Part shown: positions 27,845 to 35,189 of the stretch, piece by piece
Layout: the number at the start of each line of letters is the position of its first letter
Position numbering within the stretch: the stretch's first letter is position 1
From: a virus
Lineage: Duplodnaviria > Caudoviricetes
Reading direction: 5' to 3' (one strand)
Virus record (IMG/VR): IMGVR_UViG_3300027533_000050
Location: 1 to 41,426 of that record
Length of the DNA stretch: 41,426 bases
The notes under the pieces: generated by a model
The model's input: the letters and a program-made list of their open reading frames with translations, nothing else
Told to the model about the DNA's origin: nothing
Database searches by the model: none
Made by a program: the position numbers and the translations under genes

Positions 27845-27983
27845 GGTCCTCCCTTCGCACTCGCCAGGTGTGCCCATTGATCTTCACAGCACGAAGCTCT
27901 CCCTCCCGAATCCACTTAGAAACGGTGCGTGGTTTCACGCCGAGAATTTTTGCCACCTCTCTTGTCTTTAGCAATTTACCCAT
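27807..27983 (-). CDS. Excisionase-like HTH DNA-binding protein
   Basis: LLKTREVAKILGVKPRTVSKWIREGELRAVKING..WRV; ATG 27983. Confidence 0.9.
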   Translation of the reverse strand: MGKLLKTREVAKILGVKPRTVSKWIREGELRAVKINGHTWRVRREDLDNFIESRPTSP

Positions 27984-27990
27984 CTCCTCT

Positions 27991-28019
27991 ATTGTACGTT
28001 CTTGACGTTCGCCTGTCAA
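27991..28019 (-). promoter_or_regulatory. Sigma70/SigA-type promoter TTGACA-N17-TACAAT
   Basis: Near-consensus with an exact 17-nt spacer, 7 nt upstream of the HTH ATG. The spacer holds a GAACGT direct repeat. Confidence 0.8.
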
Positions 28020-30469
28020 AGGTGACTCTCAACTTCCCCCCAGTGCTGGCCCCACTCAACATCAGAGACTATAGGTACAGAGATGTCGGCGCCGAACGTG
28101 CGCTTGATCGGTAAGGTCTCTAGCGTCTCCTTGATGATCAGAGCCCAGTAATCAACCTTATCCTCCTTACACTGGAACATGATGCCGTCGTGGAGGGTCA
28201 TGACCATGAAGCATTGTGCTGGGTCCAGCACTTTGTATAACTGTACCATACCGTAGAGCATTAGGTCTGTGGCACACCCCTGCACTGGCGAGTTGATCGC
28301 CTGCCTGACGGCTTCCCGAGCAACAGCACCATCGCCCGAATAGACATTAGGCAAGTGACGTATGCGACCAAGAGGCGATTGCACATACCCACGCGAGCGG
28401 ACAATCGTCTCCTGTCGTCTGTGCCAGGCTTCTAGATCGGGGAACATCTTGAAGAACTGATCGCGGAACTTCTCAGCCTCAGCCAATGACACCAGCAATC
28501 CGTAGTTCTCAAACGCATAAGCCTGGAACTTCTTCGGATACATGCCGTAGACGAACCCGAAGTCTACTGCCTTCGCCAGCTTTCGTTCCTCCTTCAGCTT
28601 GAATGTTATGTCCCCCTCGTACTCCGAGATGGATCTGCCTGTAATCATCGACGCCACAGTAGAATGGATATCCTCGCCTGTGTTGAAGGCCCGAATCATC
28701 CGTCTCTCGTGAGCCACATGTGCTGCGATGCGGAGTTCAATCTGTGAATAATCAGCTTGTATGAATCGCCAGCCTTCTGGAGCTCCAAAGACAGTCCGTA
28801 TGAATGGGTCTCTGGGTACCTGTTGAAGGTCCCCGCTAAGACGTCCTGTAACAGTTCCATAGATCTTGTATGTAGTATGAATACGGGATCTCGCATCTAG
28901 CCTCACAGACCAGGGTAGTAGGTTTGTGTTCATCCACTTGAGCTGCAGTGTACGGTACTCAAGAAGCGCTTGGATTGCTGGCACCTCTCGGTAATGCAGC
29001 AACACTGACTCCTTCGTGGAGTACGCGCCTGTCTTAGTAACTTCGATCGGGTCGAGCCCAAGACCTCCTTTCTTACTCTTGCCGAATAACCACATCGCTA
29101 ACTGCTGGGTCGAGTTTGGGTTCATACCCTCCGGTGCACCGGCTTCGTAGATGACTGCCAGCTGCTCCTCGATGCGACTGTTGAGTATGTCGATACGCTC
29201 GAACAGCCGGTTGGGGTTGATGTAGACACCTGCGTACTCGACTTGTTGGAGAGTGTGAGACGCAGGCATCAACAGCTTGACGAACAACCTCGCTAGCCGC
29301 GGATGAACCTTCAGCTCGTCTTTCAGTGGCTCGTACAATTGCCTAGTATAGCCCACGTCGTAGCCATTAGCAAGGCAGATAGTACGATAGTCCTGCTTGA
29401 GGATCTGTTCAGGCTTTAGGTCTAGAGATCCTTTCCATGTGTCGGCACCAAGAATCGTTTGACTGAGGAAGCCGAGGTTCTTGGGGCGGTTCTCATCCAG
29501 CAAATGAGCAGCGAGCATAATGTCGAAGGTGTGCTCAAGAAAAACACCGGCGCCTGCGAGCTGGAGATTATCATGCTTAGCATTCTGTCCAACCAGTTTG
29601 ACATCTCCTCGGTCAAGGACTGGCTTGACATAATCTCGTAGGAGGCGCCGCCACTTTTTCCGGAAAGACGAATCAGGGTGACGGAGTGGGATGACAAAGG
29701 ACCTGTCTCCCGTAGCACTAATTCCAAGACACAAGAGGTACCACTCTTTTCCGTTCCACGGTGCATAGCGATTCTCCACATCATAGGACAACACGGGCTG
29801 AGTCTTCAAGTACCGACAGACACGACGCAGCTGATCTTCTGTGGTCACGAGCTGGACGCGGATTGACTTCGCCTCTAGCGTACCGTCCATCATACGACGG
29901 AAGCGTTTGATATCCTCAGCTAGGACTGTTCCTTGTCCCGGGTTTCGTAGAATGTAGGCAGGATGCCACGTAGCCATAAGCTGAGATTCGCCCAGTCCAA
30001 GGTCGAGGGTAAGCTTGGTATGCTTGAGCCTGACACCACGGTTCTTTCCAATGGCACCTGCTCCCCAAGCAGCACGAAGAGCAACTCCTCCAAGGAATAG
30101 AACTCCAACCGGACCCACAGCCTCGATTTCCCGTCGTAAATATCTACGGCAAGCCTCCCATTCGACCGCCGTAGGATTACGATTCTCTTCGGGCCTGCAC
30201 TTGACCGCGTTAGTAATGTATGGTCGCCTTTCCGATAGACCGGCTTCTCTGAGATATGTATCCAACAACTGCCCGGCCCTACCGCTGAAGACTTTCCCTG
30301 TGTACTCTTCATTGCCACCCGGTGCCTCCCCTATTAGCATGATCCTAGACTTGGGACTACCTCGACCCATGATGCACACTCGTTCTGTATCCTCGTGCAA
30401 GTCGCATCGAGTACAGTCATGGTCTGCGAGGTGATCGAGCTTGGACTTATACTCCATCCGCAGCCTCAT
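28016..30469 (-). CDS. polA: Family A DNA polymerase with N-terminal family-4-type uracil-DNA glycosylase and 3'-5' exonuclease domains
   Basis: CTRC, GEAPG, KCRP..NRNP, HPAY (UDG); YDVE, NAKHD (exo); ADYSQIELR, KAVDFGFVYG, LHDG (pol motifs A/B/C). Confidence 0.95.
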   Translation of the reverse strand: MRLRMEYKSKLDHLADHDCTRCDLHEDTERVCIMGRGSPKSRIMLIGEAPGGNEEYTGKVFSGRAGQLLDTYLREAGLSERRPYITNAVKCRPEENRNPTAVEWEACRRYLRREIEAVGPVGVLFLGGVALRAAWGAGAIGKNRGVRLKHTKLTLDLGLGESQLMATWHPAYILRNPGQGTVLAEDIKRFRRMMDGTLEAKSIRVQLVTTEDQLRRVCRYLKTQPVLSYDVENRYAPWNGKEWYLLCLGISATGDRSFVIPLRHPDSSFRKKWRRLLRDYVKPVLDRGDVKLVGQNAKHDNLQLAGAGVFLEHTFDIMLAAHLLDENRPKNLGFLSQTILGADTWKGSLDLKPEQILKQDYRTICLANGYDVGYTRQLYEPLKDELKVHPRLARLFVKLLMPASHTLQQVEYAGVYINPNRLFERIDILNSRIEEQLAVIYEAGAPEGMNPNSTQQLAMWLFGKSKKGGLGLDPIEVTKTGAYSTKESVLLHYREVPAIQALLEYRTLQLKWMNTNLLPWSVRLDARSRIHTTYKIYGTVTGRLSGDLQQVPRDPFIRTVFGAPEGWRFIQADYSQIELRIAAHVAHERRMIRAFNTGEDIHSTVASMITGRSISEYEGDITFKLKEERKLAKAVDFGFVYGMYPKKFQAYAFENYGLLVSLAEAEKFRDQFFKMFPDLEAWHRRQETIVRSRGYVQSPLGRIRHLPNVYSGDGAVAREAVRQAINSPVQGCATDLMLYGMVQLYKVLDPAQCFMVMTLHDGIMFQCKEDKVDYWALIIKETLETLPIKRTFGADISVPIVSDVEWGQHWGEVESHL

Positions 30470-30734
30470 TGAGCAGCGTCTTGATATCTAGTAGCGGCCA
30501 GACTATAAGCCCACTCTTCATGCCTACTTCAATGAGTGTATCAAGCTGACCCTGGATGGTGAACTGGATATTCATCAGTGGGTGACTGAAGTCTAGCGTC
30601 TCCTGTTCAGGGTCGTCGAAGCGATAGGCGTTGAGCTGGCTGATCGCCTCCCACAGTTGTTTGATCTCGAGGCAGTTGAACTTGTAGAGTTGCTCGATCT
30701 TGGGCTGATCACTCCAGTCAGTTAGCTGAGACAT
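30447..30734 (-). CDS. Hypothetical protein (95 aa)
   Basis: Overlaps both neighbours in the operon. Confidence 0.65.
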   Translation of the reverse strand: MSQLTDWSDQPKIEQLYKFNCLEIKQLWEAISQLNAYRFDDPEQETLDFSHPLMNIQFTIQGQLDTLIEVGMKSGLIVWPLLDIKTLLNEAADGV

Positions 30735-31144
30735 TCGACCTTCACCTCCGCCTCATGTAGCATTGTCACCCCTGACTCGTCACGATACGGTGTCAGGTAC
30801 ACTACTCTAGCGATACCAGCAGCGATGCACAGACGAGCGCACCCATCACACGGTGAACGCTCAACGTATAGTGTTGCTGCGTCTGTACTGATTCCCTGGC
30901 GCGCCGCGAACGCGAGAGCATTAGTCTCGGCATGTGTAGCTAGACACTCGTTGGTTTCATGGGCACGGCGAGGACAGTGGGGCATACCTGGTGGTGAACC
31001 GTTGTAGCCCCACGAGACTGCACGCCCATCTCGTGTAACAATGCAGCCTACTTGAGCACGGTTACATGTACCGAGTGAGCCTAGTGTCACTGCCATCTCG
31101 AGGAACACGTGGTCTTTGAACAACTCTCGGTCAGTGACGGACAT
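30722..31144 (-). CDS. dCMP deaminase
   Basis: C.RAQVG, GYNG.P.G..HC, HAE.NA and SPCDGC motifs. ATG 31144 with AAAGGAG RBS. Confidence 0.92.
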   Translation of the reverse strand: MSVTDRELFKDHVFLEMAVTLGSLGTCNRAQVGCIVTRDGRAVSWGYNGSPPGMPHCPRRAHETNECLATHAETNALAFAARQGISTDAATLYVERSPCDGCARLCIAAGIARVVYLTPYRDESGVTMLHEAEVKVECLS

Positions 31145-32036
31145 GATGGATGTCTCCTTTGTGGACATGGAAGGAATAGGCGGTGAAGAACAGTGTACCC
31201 GGATCGACGTCCACCCAAAATTGTGGACTATCTCCATGCTCTCCACGCAACTCCCTCTCTCGTAGCTCCTGGATCACCCATATGAGGAGACGACAAGCCA
31301 GGTATACATCATCGCGGAAATGACGGACGAGGTCACAGCTACGAATCGGATACCAAAGGTTGAGACGACCATTGCGTAGTAGAAAGTGGTAGTGCAGAGT
31401 ACAAGGGATGCGACCACCATGAACAGCACCTGTGTCCTCCGGGAAGAAGATTGGGAATGTAGCCTGCCGTGTGAATGGGTTTTTAGCGAGGAGTGAGACA
31501 ACATCGTCTAGATCGCCATACTCATAGCGGATGCCATAGATCTCTTGACCCTCAATGCGTTCTAGAGACCCTGCATACTTAGGCCAGAACCTTTCCTGGT
31601 AGGTGTGGGTGAAAATAGGTTCATCGAAGTACCCCGGACAAGTGTCCAAATGAGTACGCCCCTCTCGTTCGCCGCATGAACGACAGATCCTAGCCTCTGA
31701 CTGACCTTGCCACCACGGCCAGTTCTTGTACTCCTCGCCGGGGTTACTTGGGTCACGGGACACTCGCTCATCGAAGTGATCGTCGGCCCAAGGTAGGTTA
31801 GGCTGTATCTGTTCGGCGAGCACTCCGGGCAGATCACGGAGCTCAAATATATCACCAATGCCCGTCTGCACTTCGATTGGGCACTCGAACATGAGGTTCA
31901 GTAGCTCAATGGTGACAAGATCGGGCTTGCCCTTTGTCTCGTACCCTTGCCATGAGCCGGCATCAACTTCAACACCTCGACTCATGAGAGCGGCAGTTGC
32001 GTGGGCGATAGCTTCATTGAAAGTGACGAAGTACAT
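31131..32036 (-). CDS. Thymidylate-synthase-fold enzyme A (dCMP-modifying type)
   Basis: TY.ER, TRQA, catalytic PC, RSCD.......D and SFH motifs. Confidence 0.85.
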   Translation of the reverse strand: MYFVTFNEAIAHATAALMSRGVEVDAGSWQGYETKGKPDLVTIELLNLMFECPIEVQTGIGDIFELRDLPGVLAEQIQPNLPWADDHFDERVSRDPSNPGEEYKNWPWWQGQSEARICRSCGEREGRTHLDTCPGYFDEPIFTHTYQERFWPKYAGSLERIEGQEIYGIRYEYGDLDDVVSLLAKNPFTRQATFPIFFPEDTGAVHGGRIPCTLHYHFLLRNGRLNLWYPIRSCDLVRHFRDDVYLACRLLIWVIQELRERELRGEHGDSPQFWVDVDPGTLFFTAYSFHVHKGDIHHVRH

Positions 32037-32893
32037 TACCTCCTCCTAGTGAGTGGACTGAAGTCGAGGGTGTTTATCGGTACGGACGGAAGGAATTCAC
32101 CATTCATGTACTCGCGGTATCGACGGGTGACACGCCGTAGTGGGCCGTACTTGATTCTGTCGAGCGGAATTTCGTCCTCGGTAGACTGAACTATCTGATC
32201 CCACCACCTGCCGATGATCTTGAACGCAGGATACTCAAGCCTAAGACTCTTGTTGTGAAAGTCCTGGATATAGTTCTGCTTGTAGAGCATCGGTAGGCTC
32301 TTGAATGCGTGTAGTTGGAGGGCATCTATCGCCCACTCGAACCTGAACGAAGAGACCGGTATGTTGATCCGCTTTGATATGTACCTCGCAAGTACGTAGG
32401 CAACTGCAAGATCGGCACCTCCTATGTAGGCTATATAGGATACGCGCGAGTGCAGTGTAAGTGTTGGTTGATCCTTCCGATGCCCACGGTATGTGAATGC
32501 CATCATACAATTTCCCCATCTGTGCTTCTTCGCCTCCCTAGCTACATCATTACAGAACATGTTGGTGATTACTCCTCGTCGTCCCTCCTTGTTTCCGATC
32601 TTCTCCGCATGAGCAAGAAAACGTAGTAATTCAGTCCGATCAAGATACTGACGGCAAAGAACAGTCCAACGACTACGGTTGAGCCAAAGATCCCGGCCAA
32701 GATCGAAGTCGTAAGCCATAGAATCAGCAACGAGACGATTACCGTAGCGTATAACATCAATCCCCGCCACATAGTCGATACCCCCTCCCTCGATCGTACC
32801 ATAGAGCATACTGTGGACAGTATCATGCCACAGGTCGGTCATCGTGTCGAAATGGGATGGTCGATGTTCGAGGTCTGATCGACGACGCTTCAT
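32036..32893 (-). CDS. Divergent thymidylate-synthase-fold protein B
   Basis: GNC, LTLHSR..........D and LQLH fall in register with the TS motifs of the neighbour. TAATG coupling; ATG 32893. Confidence 0.6.
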   Translation of the reverse strand: MKRRRSDLEHRPSHFDTMTDLWHDTVHSMLYGTIEGGGIDYVAGIDVIRYGNRLVADSMAYDFDLGRDLWLNRSRWTVLCRQYLDRTELLRFLAHAEKIGNKEGRRGVITNMFCNDVAREAKKHRWGNCMMAFTYRGHRKDQPTLTLHSRVSYIAYIGGADLAVAYVLARYISKRINIPVSSFRFEWAIDALQLHAFKSLPMLYKQNYIQDFHNKSLRLEYPAFKIIGRWWDQIVQSTEDEIPLDRIKYGPLRRVTRRYREYMNGEFLPSVPINTLDFSPLTRRR

Positions 32894-33048
32894 GCGCCTA
32901 TCCACGTGAGAAACCTACTGCCCCATCTGCACTTCGGCGTAAGCCAGTCGAGTATGTAGACGAAAGCTACTAGACCCAGCGTCGGGATCAGGATAATAAA
33001 CCACCCGAGCTGAAAGAACACTCCATACGGGTCCCACCAAGGCATCAT
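32890..33048 (-). CDS. Small membrane protein MMPWWDPYGVFFQLGWFIILIPTLGLVAFVYILDW... (52 aa)
   Basis: AGGAGGT RBS, ATGA overlaps at both ends; not in the ORF track. Confidence 0.7.
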   Translation of the reverse strand: MMPWWDPYGVFFQLGWFIILIPTLGLVAFVYILDWLTPKCRWGSRFLTWIGA

Positions 33049-33365
33049 TCACCTCCTGTCTGCTTATCGTCGTTCCAATTACGCTTTCGGACTTTCTTCC
33101 ACACTTCACTAACTACGTGAGGAAAGCTAAGACCCTCACTGTAACAGTACCCATCGAGGAAGATAACAATATCCCCGATAGCATCTATCTTCATAGCGAG
33201 GATCTCTTCAGGCATGTGCCTGATACCTTGTTGTCCTTTGAGATGAGCGTGTGCTAACTCGCCTACTTCCTCGACGACTCCAAATAGTGCTTGCTCTGAG
33301 GTTTGATTGGGGAAGTTCTCTCGTAGCCAGTGGCGGTGTTGTAACTGCAGTGATTCCAGGTCCAT
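33045..33365 (-). CDS. MazG-like nucleotide pyrophosphohydrolase
   Basis: W...NF, EEVGEL and DAIGD motifs. Confidence 0.85.
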   Translation of the reverse strand: MDLESLQLQHRHWLRENFPNQTSEQALFGVVEEVGELAHAHLKGQQGIRHMPEEILAMKIDAIGDIVIFLDGYCYSEGLSFPHVVSEVWKKVRKRNWNDDKQTGGE

Positions 33366-33688
33366 TACATATCCCTCTCGATCATCTCGTAGACATTAGC
33401 GTAGCCACAGATGTCAGTCATGTTGTCGGCGTGTCCGGGCATGTACTTCTCGCGACACAGTTTGAGGAAGATATTGAAGACGGCCCCGTCTAGCGCGTTC
33501 ATGGAACGGACAATACCTTCCGGATCACTAACTCCTGGGATTCGAAGCCAGATGTTCATGTGATCGGCGAGATCTAAATAGATCGGGGTAGGTGGACCAT
33601 AGACTGAGCCTCTATCCTCTACGACTCTGGTAGCGCGAACTGACGGGGGCTCGTATTGGGACAACACCGGCCGCTTGCTTTTCGCCAC
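33365..33688 (-). CDS. DUF6378-like protein (possible nucleotide hydrolase)
   Basis: DRG.VYG.P, LK..R and H.DN..DI.GYA motifs. Confidence 0.75.
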   Translation of the reverse strand: MAKSKRPVLSQYEPPSVRATRVVEDRGSVYGPPTPIYLDLADHMNIWLRIPGVSDPEGIVRSMNALDGAVFNIFLKLCREKYMPGHADNMTDICGYANVYEMIERDM

Positions 33689-33722
33689 GGTACCATGCCT
33701 CCTTTGTAGTTTCTTACTCGTT

Positions 33723-33731
33723 ATTGTACCA
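33723..33731 (-). promoter_or_regulatory. Extended -10 promoter (TGG-TACAAT) driving the nucleotide cassette
   Basis: TGnTACAAT in the gap after the helicase, followed by an A-rich leader and AAAGGAGG. Confidence 0.6.
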
Positions 33732-33737
33732 TACCCG

Positions 33738-35189
33738 TCAAAACCCGAACAGGAAACCGCGAGGATGCTTCATCATCTCAGCGTGCATGTCCCGTTTCCC
33801 CCGCAGCGCGCTGAGCACTGACACGTCTACAGTTCCTCGAGCAAGGAGGTACGTATACCGGACGGGGCGCTTTTGCTTGGGTCCCATGACTCTGTCACCA
33901 GTCTGCTTGAAAGTTTCCCAACTATCCGGGAGACTATAGTAAAACACCTCCGCCGCCCGCGTGAGCTCAATGGCAAGCGCACCAGCCTCAGACTGGAAAA
34001 TGATGGCCTGGGGTCCTGGAGATTGTTGGAACTCTGCAATCGCTGTAGTTCTATCTTTACGTTTGACTGCTCCGGTGATAGTATTGCTGCTATAGCCCAG
34101 CTTTTGCACGAGCTCGGAGCAGGCCTGTACTTCTGGAAGATGGCGTGCATACACCACCACTGACTCGTCCTGTTCACGAAGGTCCTGAAGATAATCGCGT
34201 GCCGCCGTGATTCTAGCCCGATGGATCTCACGTCCTGATGTAGTAAATCCACCGGTGATTTGGAGTAGGCGGAGACGCCGAACGCCTGCATTAGCTGCGT
34301 CAATGAGCTCATCGCCGATCTGAACCACAAGCTCTTCTGCAAATCGGTCATATAGCTCCCTAGTTTCAGGTGGTAGACTAAATCGAATGGGATTGAAGAG
34401 ACGAACACCCTCGAGGCCTGCCTCTTTCGCATTGACCACAGTGGCGTGTCGATCGACCTTCTTGAGTAGGCGCTTCTTATTCTTGTAGCGGATGATTGTG
34501 TACTTCCGACGACCTCTACCGTATACGCAGTACTCGTCCTCGAAGTCGGTCTTCGCTGTGCCTAGGATGGAATCATCGAGGATCCGATACTGCGCGAAGA
34601 GATCAATATATCCCTTTGGGTTTGGAGTTCCTGAGAGTAGATATACGAAAGGAAGTCTATCACCTCGTCTATCTCTAAGGCGGCGTATGCAACGCCAGAG
34701 CGCTTGACTACGAACAGCCCCCGCTCTCTTACAGCGGTGCGACTCGTCGAGCACAAAGAGATCTGGCTCCCATCGTTCCACCGCATCAAGATAATCATTT
34801 CGGTAGGGTTCTTCAAGACCCCTCCTGCTGAACTTGTCGTAGTTGACTAGGTAGAAGTGTAGCTTGATCTTCTCCCTCTTGCTGGACTTCGTTGACGGGT
34901 AGATGTGTAAGTGAGGCTCTTCGCCTACAACCACGACTGATGCAGGCACAGCTAGGTGCTGTGTAATCTGATCTACCCATACATCGAGGGCGATGAGTGG
35001 GGCGATCACGACTACACGCTGTACTTTGCCTCTAATGTGCTGTACGGCGATGGTGTCAAGTGCTGCTTTCGTTTTACCGAGTCGGGGCTCAAAGAAGAAG
35101 GCGTGATTGCCTTGCTTCAATGCCCGTTTCATAGCCTTGAGTTGATGGGGCCAAGGCTTCGTTCGTAGCCTAAGCTTGTGGCGGGCCAA
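33738..35189 (-). CDS. SF2 (SNF2-like) helicase
   Basis: PWPHQ, EPRLGKT, VNYD, LDESH, LSGTP and Q..DR motifs. Confidence 0.9.
   Translation of the reverse strand: MARHKLRLRTKPWPHQLKAMKRALKQGNHAFFFEPRLGKTKAALDTIAVQHIRGKVQRVVVIAPLIALDVWVDQITQHLAVPASVVVVGEEPHLHIYPSTKSSKREKIKLHFYLVNYDKFSRRGLEEPYRNDYLDAVERWEPDLFVLDESHRCKRAGAVRSQALWRCIRRLRDRRGDRLPFVYLLSGTPNPKGYIDLFAQYRILDDSILGTAKTDFEDEYCVYGRGRRKYTIIRYKNKKRLLKKVDRHATVVNAKEAGLEGVRLFNPIRFSLPPETRELYDRFAEELVVQIGDELIDAANAGVRRLRLLQITGGFTTSGREIHRARITAARDYLQDLREQDESVVVYARHLPEVQACSELVQKLGYSSNTITGAVKRKDRTTAIAEFQQSPGPQAIIFQSEAGALAIELTRAAEVFYYSLPDSWETFKQTGDRVMGPKQKRPVRYTYLLARGTVDVSVLSALRGKRDMHAEMMKHPRGFLFGF

Follow-up and report, generated by a model that had tools for sequence, protein, structure and literature searches.

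TS enzymes are obligate dimers. In SPO1-type hmU phages the hydroxymethylase is uracil-specific (Asn177) and PolA carries an N-terminal UDG-like domain; in T4, a phage-owned kinase and dNTP pyrophosphatase (gp1 and gp56) mark a non-canonical nucleotide. The closest described systems are the T4 hmC pathway (gp56 dCTPase, gp42 [PDB 1B5D/6A9A], gp1 kinase, cd deaminase) and MilA (PDB 5B6D), the 5mC module of Xp12 and PaMx74 with the MetaGPA neighbourhoods, which in the accessible text combine an Asp177 TS, a dCMP-family deaminase, PRA-PH and PolA (10.1101/2024.12.05.627091; PMC8670742), and the 5-hydroxy-dCMP synthases (RB69 gp48, HY126 AfhB, PDB 9IQC), in which the TS fold is reused for new cytosine chemistry (PMC13326640). 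Asp177 gives dCMP preference (PMC13326640, PMC8670742), and Asp or Glu at position 143 is the dCMP hydroxymethylase signature (PMC13326640). In the available part of the MetaGPA report, cytosine-modified contigs were enriched in TS, dCMP deaminase, PRA-PH, PolA, AAA_28 and dUTPase_2, counted as Pfam families and not as the TS subfamily described here, and an Asp177 TS with a deaminase occurred in 104/149 modified-C contigs vs 17/277 (10.1101/2024.12.05.627091). No sequences of the present family were found in the MetaGPA supplements as far as these were accessible.

The window (the whole stretch of DNA analysed, 41,426 nt) is an entire record open at both ends; since many close relatives measure 45-48 kb, it may lack a few kb. 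Eight coupled ORFs lie on the minus strand, each overlapping or abutting its neighbour as the original prediction described. The features, with the evidence for each, were as follows.

33738-35189, minus strand: SNF2 helicase, directly upstream, a conserved neighbour of the cassette (domain match and relatives' loci)
33731-33723, minus strand: extended -10 promoter-like motif TGnTACAAT (sequence)
33688-33365, minus strand: DUF6378 protein, 107 aa, candidate non-P-loop dNMP kinase (PF19905, 1.1e-9)
33365-33045, minus strand: MazG-like all-alpha dNTP pyrophosphatase, 106 aa (phrog_715, 3e-6; Pfam MazG, 0.014)
33048-32890, minus strand: hydrophobic ORF, 52 aa (no Pfam or PHROG family matched)
32905-32036, minus strand: TS-A, 289 aa, unnamed TS-fold family (structure model and residue alignment)
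32036-31131, minus strand: TS-B, 301 aa, dCMP-type TS homolog (TS phrog_160, 2e-21; PDB profile; model)
31144-30722, minus strand: dCMP-family deaminase, 140 aa, zinc motifs intact (dCMP_cyt_deam_1, 3e-19)
30734-30447, minus strand: ORF, 95 aa (no Pfam or PHROG family matched)
30469-28016, minus strand: UDG-PolA, family-4-like UDG, 3'-5' exonuclease and family-A polymerase (matches to all three domains)

The DUF6378 and MazG-like ORFs overlap by 1 nt, as do TS-A and TS-B. The labels first given to DUF6378, the MazG-like protein, the dCMP deaminase and UDG-PolA were borne out by Pfam and PHROG matches. The deaminase start was placed at ATG 31144, which has a Shine-Dalgarno sequence ahead of it; the 174-aa GTG frame is over-long. 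The 52-aa and 95-aa ORFs had one homolog each among the loci and are probably passengers. A dedicated extended -10 promoter had also been proposed. The motif does lie within the 49-nt gap ahead of the cassette, and in 6 of the 13 relatives examined a similar one directly precedes the cassette's first gene. The window has three such motifs vs 1.63 in 100 mononucleotide shuffles, which by count is not above chance, and no terminator-like site was found between the upstream helicase and the cassette, so read-through is possible. The next unit begins with a sigma-70 match (11/12) at 28019-27991.

Neither the type of P-loop kinase seen in relatives nor DHFR (searched with Xp12 DHFR) was found in the window, and no glycosyltransferase was present among the 30 ORFs scanned. 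The original prediction likewise recognised no dNMP kinase, DHFR or glycosyltransferase; the kinase role may well be held by DUF6378. Across 68 TS-A-bearing loci, a kinase or DUF6378 was present in 65, of which 57 had the kinase only, 8 DUF6378 only and none both, and the place of DUF6378 in the gene order is exactly that of the P-loop kinase in Muddy and other relatives. This mutual exclusion in one slot is new in the present analysis. Since DUF6378 excludes the P-loop kinase and fills its place, it is a candidate dNMP kinase, for which gene displacement leaves the case evenly balanced. The protein has no P-loop, and neither a homologous known kinase nor a PDB relative was detected. With hhalign it did not align to DUF3310 (2 sequences) or MazG and aligned weakly to DUF1599 (E 0.027, probability 1.9%, motif order right); a weak search gave no longer or fused homologs. 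T7 gp1.7 (DUF3310; PF11753, 4.5e-23), a dNMP kinase by record annotation, is likewise a small helical phage domain, but it serves as precedent only, with no profile alignment from the few sequences. A DUF3310 gene adjoins TS-B in one locus (L030).

TS-B is a divergent TS homolog. Residues E90, Y146, R209, C212 and R232 correspond to ThyA 58, 94, 143, 146 and 166, and D235, H239, D243 and H290 to ThyA 169, 173, 177 and 207. Among 102 aligned rows C212 was conserved in 101, D235 in 100 and D243 (Asp177) in 101; the ThyA-143 position was Arg209 in 101 and the ThyA-147 position was Thr or Ser. The nearest PDB sequence relatives were MilA (4e-5) and T4 gp42 (2.5e-3). The TS fold, Cys146, Asp169 and Asp177 of gp42 and MilA were all found, and the protein ends near ThyA residue 220, without the C-terminal tail. 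The combination of Arg143 and His173 is unprecedented, and with Arg in place of Asp or Glu at 143 TS-B fails the published hydroxymethylase signature.

TS-A had no match in Pfam and in PHROG matched only 13667 (unknown function); its profile returned nothing relevant from the PDB (top match unrelated, E 0.05). Alignments of close relatives gave no fold with hhalign, and only diverse alignments aligned, the register on TS-B having an E of 0.0033 over 48 columns. In the predicted structure (pLDDT 93) Foldseek recovered the TS fold, and VIA-align gave a best Z of 15.2 (188 residues aligned at rmsd 3.4). The chains that reached Z 10 or more were seven members of the TS family, the next match being at Z 4.8. 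On the predicted model, TS-A has the TS fold despite the lack of a Pfam match. Both of the TS-fold genes originally proposed were thus recovered, TS-B by sequence and TS-A by structure model. TS-A Y87, C133, R154 and D165 correspond to ThyA 94, 146, 166 and 177 (the first correspondence is placed by its position in the motif, the rest by profile alignment), and Tyr157 replaces Asp169. The fold, catalytic Cys146 and phosphate Arg166 of the TS superfamily are all present. Among 202 diverse homologs Tyr87, Cys133 and Arg154 were invariant; the ThyA-177 position was Asp in 198 and Glu in 4, and the ThyA-169 position Tyr in 130 and Glu in 42. The canonical ThyA signature (Asn177, Leu143, His147) fits neither protein: both have Asp177, and TS-B has Arg143 and Thr/Ser147.

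The invariance of Tyr, Cys and Arg in 202/202 homologs suggests that TS-A is probably an enzyme and not a scaffold. It is unlikely that TS-B alone makes 5-hydroxymethyl- or 5-methyl-dCMP with TS-A as a structural or regulatory partner, perhaps a heterodimer subunit. Such a partnership would suit the dimeric nature of TS and the translational coupling of TS-A to TS-B, seen here and in many relatives. TS-B was near TS-A in 36 of 37 TS-A loci (the remaining locus stops at a contig edge), one of its two in-trans Arg positions is invariably Gln, and it also exists without TS-A. A scaffold, however, need not fix Cys, Arg, Tyr and Asp (198-202 of 202) while distant members share 12-19% identity, and the in-trans Arg positions of TS-A are variable. 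Heterodimer prediction for TS-B with TS-A (residues 14-289) scored 0.00 in both control-free runs and was counted neither for nor against the pair. A flavin-dependent role for TS-A, as an oxygenase or reductase like the 5-hydroxy-dCMP synthases with 5-hydroxycytosine or an oxidised derivative as its product, is very improbable. Its top structural match is 9iqc, a flavin-binding dCMP hydroxylase (Z 15.2 vs 12.5 for MilA), and it lacks Asp169, but identity is 9%, no glycosyltransferase lies nearby, and the diagnostic D169N (PMC13326640) is absent from both proteins.

The order kinase-pyrophosphatase-A-B-deaminase-PolA recurs in Gordonia cluster CT, Muddy, Zuko, Serbin, PMBT14 and Clostridium phages. 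The TS-like pairs that the original prediction mentioned in actinophages are real, and the gene-neighbourhood survey placed the pair in proteobacterial and Clostridium phages as well. Hosts of cultured members are M. smegmatis, Gordonia and Pseudomonas fluorescens. A pyrophosphatase was present in 67/68 TS-A-bearing loci (19 distinct ones are homologous to the Xp12 enzyme) and a deaminase in 62 of the 65 with enough flank. TS-A was missing beside TS-B in 18 of 86 loci, two of them complete genomes searched end to end. TS-A was not found by weak searches of 10 such records, nor by local profile in G001, G003 and G007 (all but about 100 nt). Loss of the kinase along with TS-A was rejected, since a P-loop kinase is present in G001 and DUF1599 or DUF3310 in the others. 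A C5-DNA-methyltransferase-like gene lies near the cassette in 5 of the 18 loci and, if it acts on DNA, would need unmodified cytosine. Assignment of these genes as CmoX was rejected, HPEC replacing SPPC.

Since both TS-fold enzymes keep the cytosine-selecting residue, cytosine is likely exchanged for a modified base, and the best reading is a T4/Xp12-like pre-replicative replacement in which two steps yield a C5-modified base. With modest confidence, we propose that the operon makes a C5-modified cytosine nucleotide that is incorporated for cytosine, both TS-fold proteins being working enzymes in sequence. The non-canonical pyrimidine first suggested is thereby kept, as the product of a base-substitution cassette, and narrowed to cytosine; the SPO1 hmU analogy is dropped, as Asp177 in both proteins argues against it and against conversion of dUMP to dTMP by either. 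Points against cytosine replacement are Arg143 in TS-B, the TS-B-only loci, the C5-methyltransferase-like neighbours, and EcoRI restriction patterns, obtained for all isolates including the cassette-bearing Polewnik and Strzyga, with no per-phage result found in the accessible text (PMC10070969). The literature found held no nucleoside, restriction or enzyme data, or biochemistry, for any cassette member; the available parts of PMC7775415, PMC5559632, PMC6884629 and 10.1101/2023.02.06.527410 held nothing on base chemistry.

The cassette is annotated as thymine synthesis in relatives. We consider it improbable, however, that it is solely a DHFR-independent dTMP route (dCMP to 5-methyl-dCMP to dTMP) in a phage with canonical DNA. 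The annotation in a genome announcement (PMC10353413) and relatives' kinases annotated as thymidylate kinase point that way, but such annotations are based on fold names. ThyA and ThyX were absent within 5 kb in 66/68 TS-A-bearing loci, which also fits a pair serving thymidylate supply, and DHFR was found in no cassette locus. Two intact A+B cassettes nevertheless hold ThyA (Huwbert gp68, Asn177) or ThyX (L139), with which this route would be redundant; the near-obligate kinase and pyrophosphatase mark a non-canonical nucleotide, as with T4 gp1/gp56, and the MetaGPA counts given above favour modified cytosine. The added ThyA or ThyX and the near-universal kinase and pyrophosphatase likewise disfavour the non-canonical thymidylate route of the original prediction.

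Phages with this cassette also have the nearest relatives of the deaminase: among the 40 best-listed matches (3,356 records), 39 belong to phage groups carrying it. Such co-evolution would also suit deamination of a C5-substituted dCMP to a modified dUMP replacing T, as in SPO1-like phages, which we regard as unlikely, though slightly less so than the dTMP route. Deaminases of this kind can act on 5hm-dC nucleotides, according to the accessible text of 10.1101/2024.12.05.627091, and the available text on 5mC-selective deaminases describes their selectivity as polyphyletic, with no published residue rule. PolA is UDG-fused in 108/118 long PolA ORFs (duplicates counted), and TS-B, deaminase and pyrophosphatase are retained beside the C5-methyltransferase-like gene. 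Opposed to T replacement are ThyA or ThyX inside a cassette, pyrophosphatases of Xp12-like and 'dCTP pyrophosphatase'-annotated types, and the scanned neighbours, in which no post-replicative hmU kinase or transferase turned up. DNA with dU for T was set aside since the UDG motifs of PolA are intact (the Cys ligands are also present).

For cytosine replacement the following steps are proposed. The MazG-like protein, a predicted dCTPase/dUTPase, would destroy dCTP (and dUTP), giving dCMP. TS-B Cys212 would attack C6 of dCMP and add a one-carbon unit from methylene-THF, leaving the folate unoxidised; the residues are present, and the product may be a hydroxymethyl or trapped-methylene form. In the least certain step, possible but tentative, TS-A, which keeps the nucleotide-activating Tyr, Cys, Arg and Asp without Asp169, would re-form the Cys adduct and replace or reduce the C5 substituent. 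That would give the final base, perhaps 5-methyl-C, perhaps a new adduct; the order TS-B then TS-A is a guess. DUF6378 (the P-loop kinase in relatives) would phosphorylate the modified dCMP, a role to which gene displacement lends about even weight. The deaminase would supply the thymidine branch, from dCMP via host TS or from the methylated nucleotide as in Xp12-type phages. PolA would then incorporate the base, and its UDG domain would clear stray uracil.

More doubtful is the wider proposal that a supergroup of small PolA phages of Actinobacteria, Proteobacteria and Firmicutes, including the therapy phage Muddy, makes an undescribed cytosine base by a relay of two TS-fold enzymes, with TS-A a new class of folate-independent Cys enzyme, no need for DHFR, and DUF6378 a new dNMP kinase family. 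If true, the TS superfamily would gain chemistry beyond methylation, hydroxymethylation and flavin hydroxylation, DUF6378 would gain a function, and the 'thymine synthesis' cluster of dozens of cultured phages would be re-annotated as genome-wide base substitution. The substitution would govern sensitivity to restriction, CRISPR and modification-dependent nucleases, and the handling of therapy phage DNA.

The cassette shares with T4 the pyrophosphatase, an Asp177 TS homolog, the kinase slot, the deaminase and a phage-owned polymerase. Unlike T4, it has a family-A polymerase with a UDG domain and lacks a glycosyltransferase and, in most cases, ThyA and DHFR. The best alignments of TS-B are to MilA and gp42, which it resembles in lacking the ThyA tail, but a second TS-fold enzyme is present, and Arg143 and His173 stand in place of an acidic 143 and Gly173. 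The Asp177 TS beside a deaminase, the all-alpha pyrophosphatase and PolA are shared with Xp12-type modules. Xp12, however, has one TS, whose likeness to TS-B is only distant (E 5.6e-7 against the B profile) and which keeps Gly173 and a ThyA-like tail, and DHFR adjoins its dCMP methylase, whereas two TS-fold genes and no DHFR match are present here. In structural comparison 9IQC ranks first for both models (for TS-B jointly with other TS), but the 5-hydroxy-dCMP synthase signature D169N is absent (Asp in TS-B, Tyr/Glu in TS-A), and so are the arabinosyl and glycosyl transferases of those systems. With SPO1-type phages the UDG-like N-domain on PolA is shared and Asn177 is not. The same gene order with orthologous A and B is found in CT, Muddy, Zuko, Huwbert, Serbin, PMBT14, Polewnik, CPD4 and Desulfofustis MD02, whose cassettes, annotated as thymine synthesis or hypothetical, carry a P-loop kinase where the present phage has DUF6378.

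The window spans an entire virus record of 41,426 nt (54% GC). Its plus strand carries genes for terminase, a P22-like portal and capsid, and its minus strand the replication module. At least half of its sampled words were present in six groundwater/sediment metagenome runs, one of which is possibly its source. All eight genes named in the original prediction of an operon (28016..33731) were present on the minus strand, coupled through overlaps of 1-23 nt. The features used here are as follows.

33731-33723, minus strand: extended -10 in front of the cassette (sequence motif)
32905-32036, minus strand: TS-A, a thymidylate synthase (TS)-fold protein
32036-31131, minus strand: TS-B, a second TS-fold protein
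31144, minus strand: start of the dCMP deaminase
28019-27991, minus strand: sigma-70 promoter near consensus (11/12), overlapping the PolA stop

Extended -10 motifs numbered 3 in the window versus 1.63 in shuffles, which is unremarkable; of the 13 relatives checked, 6 carry one like it ahead of the cassette. Genes for an excisionase-like HTH protein, an exonuclease, a Sak4-like and an SSB-like protein lie behind the sigma-70 promoter; the first of these probably starts at the ATG near 27983 rather than at TTG 28019.

TS-A matched no named family in Pfam, PHROG and PDB profile searches. Its model was confident (pLDDT 93) and its structural matches were TS-family chains only, with Z scores of 15.2 for dCMP hydroxylase 9iqc, 12.5 for MilA and 10-11 for ThyA and gp42; the next match stood at 4.8. 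A set of 202 TS-A sequences was compared, of which 77 came from loci and the others, length-filtered, from the 150 matches listed of 336 representatives. Tyr87, Cys133 and Arg154 were invariant in it, and Asp165 was found in 198, with Glu in the other 4. TS-B matched the TS PHROG at 2e-21, and its profile found MilA (4e-5) and then T4 gp42 (2.5e-3) as top PDB matches. TS structures made up the matches of its model throughout (Z 16.4-17.4, tied). ThyA numbering, taken from PMC13326640, places Cys146, Arg166, Asp169, Asp177 and His207 in TS-B. Its unusual residues were Arg143 (101/102 rows) and His173 (97/102 rows). Aligned with E. coli ThyA, TS-B stops near residue 220; reductive methylation requires the ThyA C-terminus. 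A low-confidence insertion at residues ~116-140 of the window TS-B (31131-32036) carries CxxC...HxxxC, a possible zinc site that is not in the family consensus. C133, R154, Y157 and D165 of TS-A were aligned by hhalign with C212, R232, D235 and D243 of TS-B (E 0.0033). From the conserved residues and this register, each of the two proteins appears to act on cytosine, and TS-A, though Asp169 is lost, appears to be catalytic.

Searching 50,697 phage records with tblastn placed TS-A in 85 and TS-B in 126 (RefSeq duplicates counted), and protein searches returned 416 and 2,167 matches, respectively. The family is essentially viral, since TS-B patterns matched only 7 MAG contigs among 185,579 prokaryote genomes; it is wide and has cultured members. 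The order kinase, pyrophosphatase, ~270-aa hypothetical protein, TS, deaminase, PolA was shared by GTE2, Huwbert, Serbin, PMBT14, Polewnik, Muddy, CPD4, Zuko and MD02, with no deaminase found within the stretch of CPD4 examined. The hypothetical protein was TS-A in 9/9 (iterated profile). According to PMC6884629, the genes of Muddy further include a singleton for a QueC-like N-type ATP pyrophosphatase; this is a possible tailoring enzyme.

The locus set held 101 distinct TS-B rows, one locus being counted twice; 86 had at least 4 kb upstream and 15 were dropped. TS-A lay within 6 kb of TS-B in 68/86, a biased rate because loci were collected by similarity to window proteins, partly with TS-A as query, and 80/254 were kept at one step. 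Pyrophosphatase was present in 67 of the 68 TS-A-bearing loci, and deaminase in 62 of the 65 with enough flank. Nineteen pyrophosphatases were homologs of the Xp12 enzyme, and 39 of the best 40 deaminase matches listed belonged to the phage groups that carry the cassette. Cassettes with three TS-fold genes were seen at L063:5018-7288 (A and two B-like) and L064:4897-7871 (two A and B). At L146:4875-5630 a Stf0-like sulfotransferase is inserted directly ahead of TS-A, and a sulfated derivative is hinted at in that lineage.

Among the same 68 loci, 57 carried a P-loop kinase only, 8 DUF6378 only (window included), 3 neither and none both, versus ~6.7 co-occurrences expected by independence (hand arithmetic, kinship ignored). 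DUF6378 directly preceded the pyrophosphatase, the kinase's place, in 8/8 relatives listed. Its label required 5 changes on a quick TS-B tree, at least 2 of them forced by starred branches, and one forced change sits on a long branch. PDB and profile comparisons linked DUF6378 by homology to none of the known kinases, so gene displacement alone makes it a candidate kinase; alternatively it could be a second pyrophosphatase or a phosphatase partner, and an Atlas cluster unites a similar fold with HAD_PNKP. Where TS-A and the P-loop kinase were both missing, the slot held DUF1599 (L069, L081, L086) or DUF3310 (L030); T7 gp1.7, annotated as a nucleotide kinase, is a DUF3310 protein. Kinase and pyrophosphatase share one reading frame at ~3108-4080 of L170/L171, and kinase is joined to a UDG-like domain at L157:13445-14434 in the TS-A-less genome G001.

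Thirteen TS-B loci without TS-A formed one clade (98) on the TS-B tree, where its absence is unproven because the records are mostly large and incomplete and the genes dispersed. Glycosylation is suggested in this large-genome clade; at L031:4909-7475 TS-B adjoins NDP-sugar epimerase, UDP-glucose dehydrogenase, NUDIX and cupin genes. TS-A was absent throughout two complete genomes of the TS-A-less type. At five other such loci (L069, L081, L086, L028, L030) a C5-methyltransferase-like gene adjoins TS-B, accompanied in four by an asparagine-synthase-like/glutamine amidotransferase gene. The products form a divergent C5-cytosine methyltransferase-like family with an HPEC catalytic motif, DDL for ENV (motif VI) and a Cys-rich tail; they resemble CmoX but fall outside its published motif definition (PMC12783734, accessible part). 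The association required 3 changes on the TS-B tree. One reading makes the protein a cysteine/C6 enzyme analogous to TS-A and standing in for it; C5-methyltransferases are able to couple nucleophiles to hydroxymethylcytosine. Another is an independent DNA-level modification, which would require a free C5 and would count against full substitution by TS-B alone.

Pre-replicative replacement of cytosine, all versions included, is the probable function, because Asp177 occurs in both TS-fold proteins, the private kinase and pyrophosphatase are almost obligate, the deaminase's best relatives lie in the same phage groups, the UDG on the polymerase is intact, and such domains are enriched in cytosine-modified contigs (PMC8670742; 10.1101/2024.12.05.627091; accessible parts). 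The version with both TS-A and TS-B catalytic is slightly better than an even bet. With Xp12 DHFR as query, no DHFR was found at these loci. This and the gp42-like features of TS-B suggest that TS-B would first make a non-oxidative one-carbon transfer and TS-A would then perform a second step; both the sequence of the two steps and the product are inferred.

The original prediction of a pyrimidine pathway is narrowed: Asp177 and the domain enrichment point to cytosine replacement, and its other branch, in which the pair serves solely as a thymidylate source, is argued against. That 66/68 TS-A-bearing loci lack ThyA and ThyX would suit such a source, but within 5 kb one has ThyA and one ThyX, and the canonical ThyA (Huwbert gp68, L002:12236-13039) and the ThyX (L139:3668-4573) both lie inside intact cassettes. 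Four cassette genes are called thymine synthesis, with TS-A omitted, in the accessible part of PMC10353413. A literature search, largely outside subscription journals and covering accessible parts of PMC6884629, 10.1101/2023.02.06.527410, PMC7775415, PMC10070969 and PMC5559632, turned up neither biochemistry nor nucleoside analysis for the TS pair or for DUF6378; the lists of enzymes tested in 10.1101/2024.12.05.627091 may include family members.

The cassette probably works like the T4 cytosine-substitution kit and the Xp12 kit. It is a member of neither, because TS-B lacks the acidic residue of the T4-type position-143 test and is distant from the methylase of Xp12 (which has a DHFR), the D169N of D169N-type enzymes is in neither TS-A nor TS-B, and TS-A belongs to no named family.
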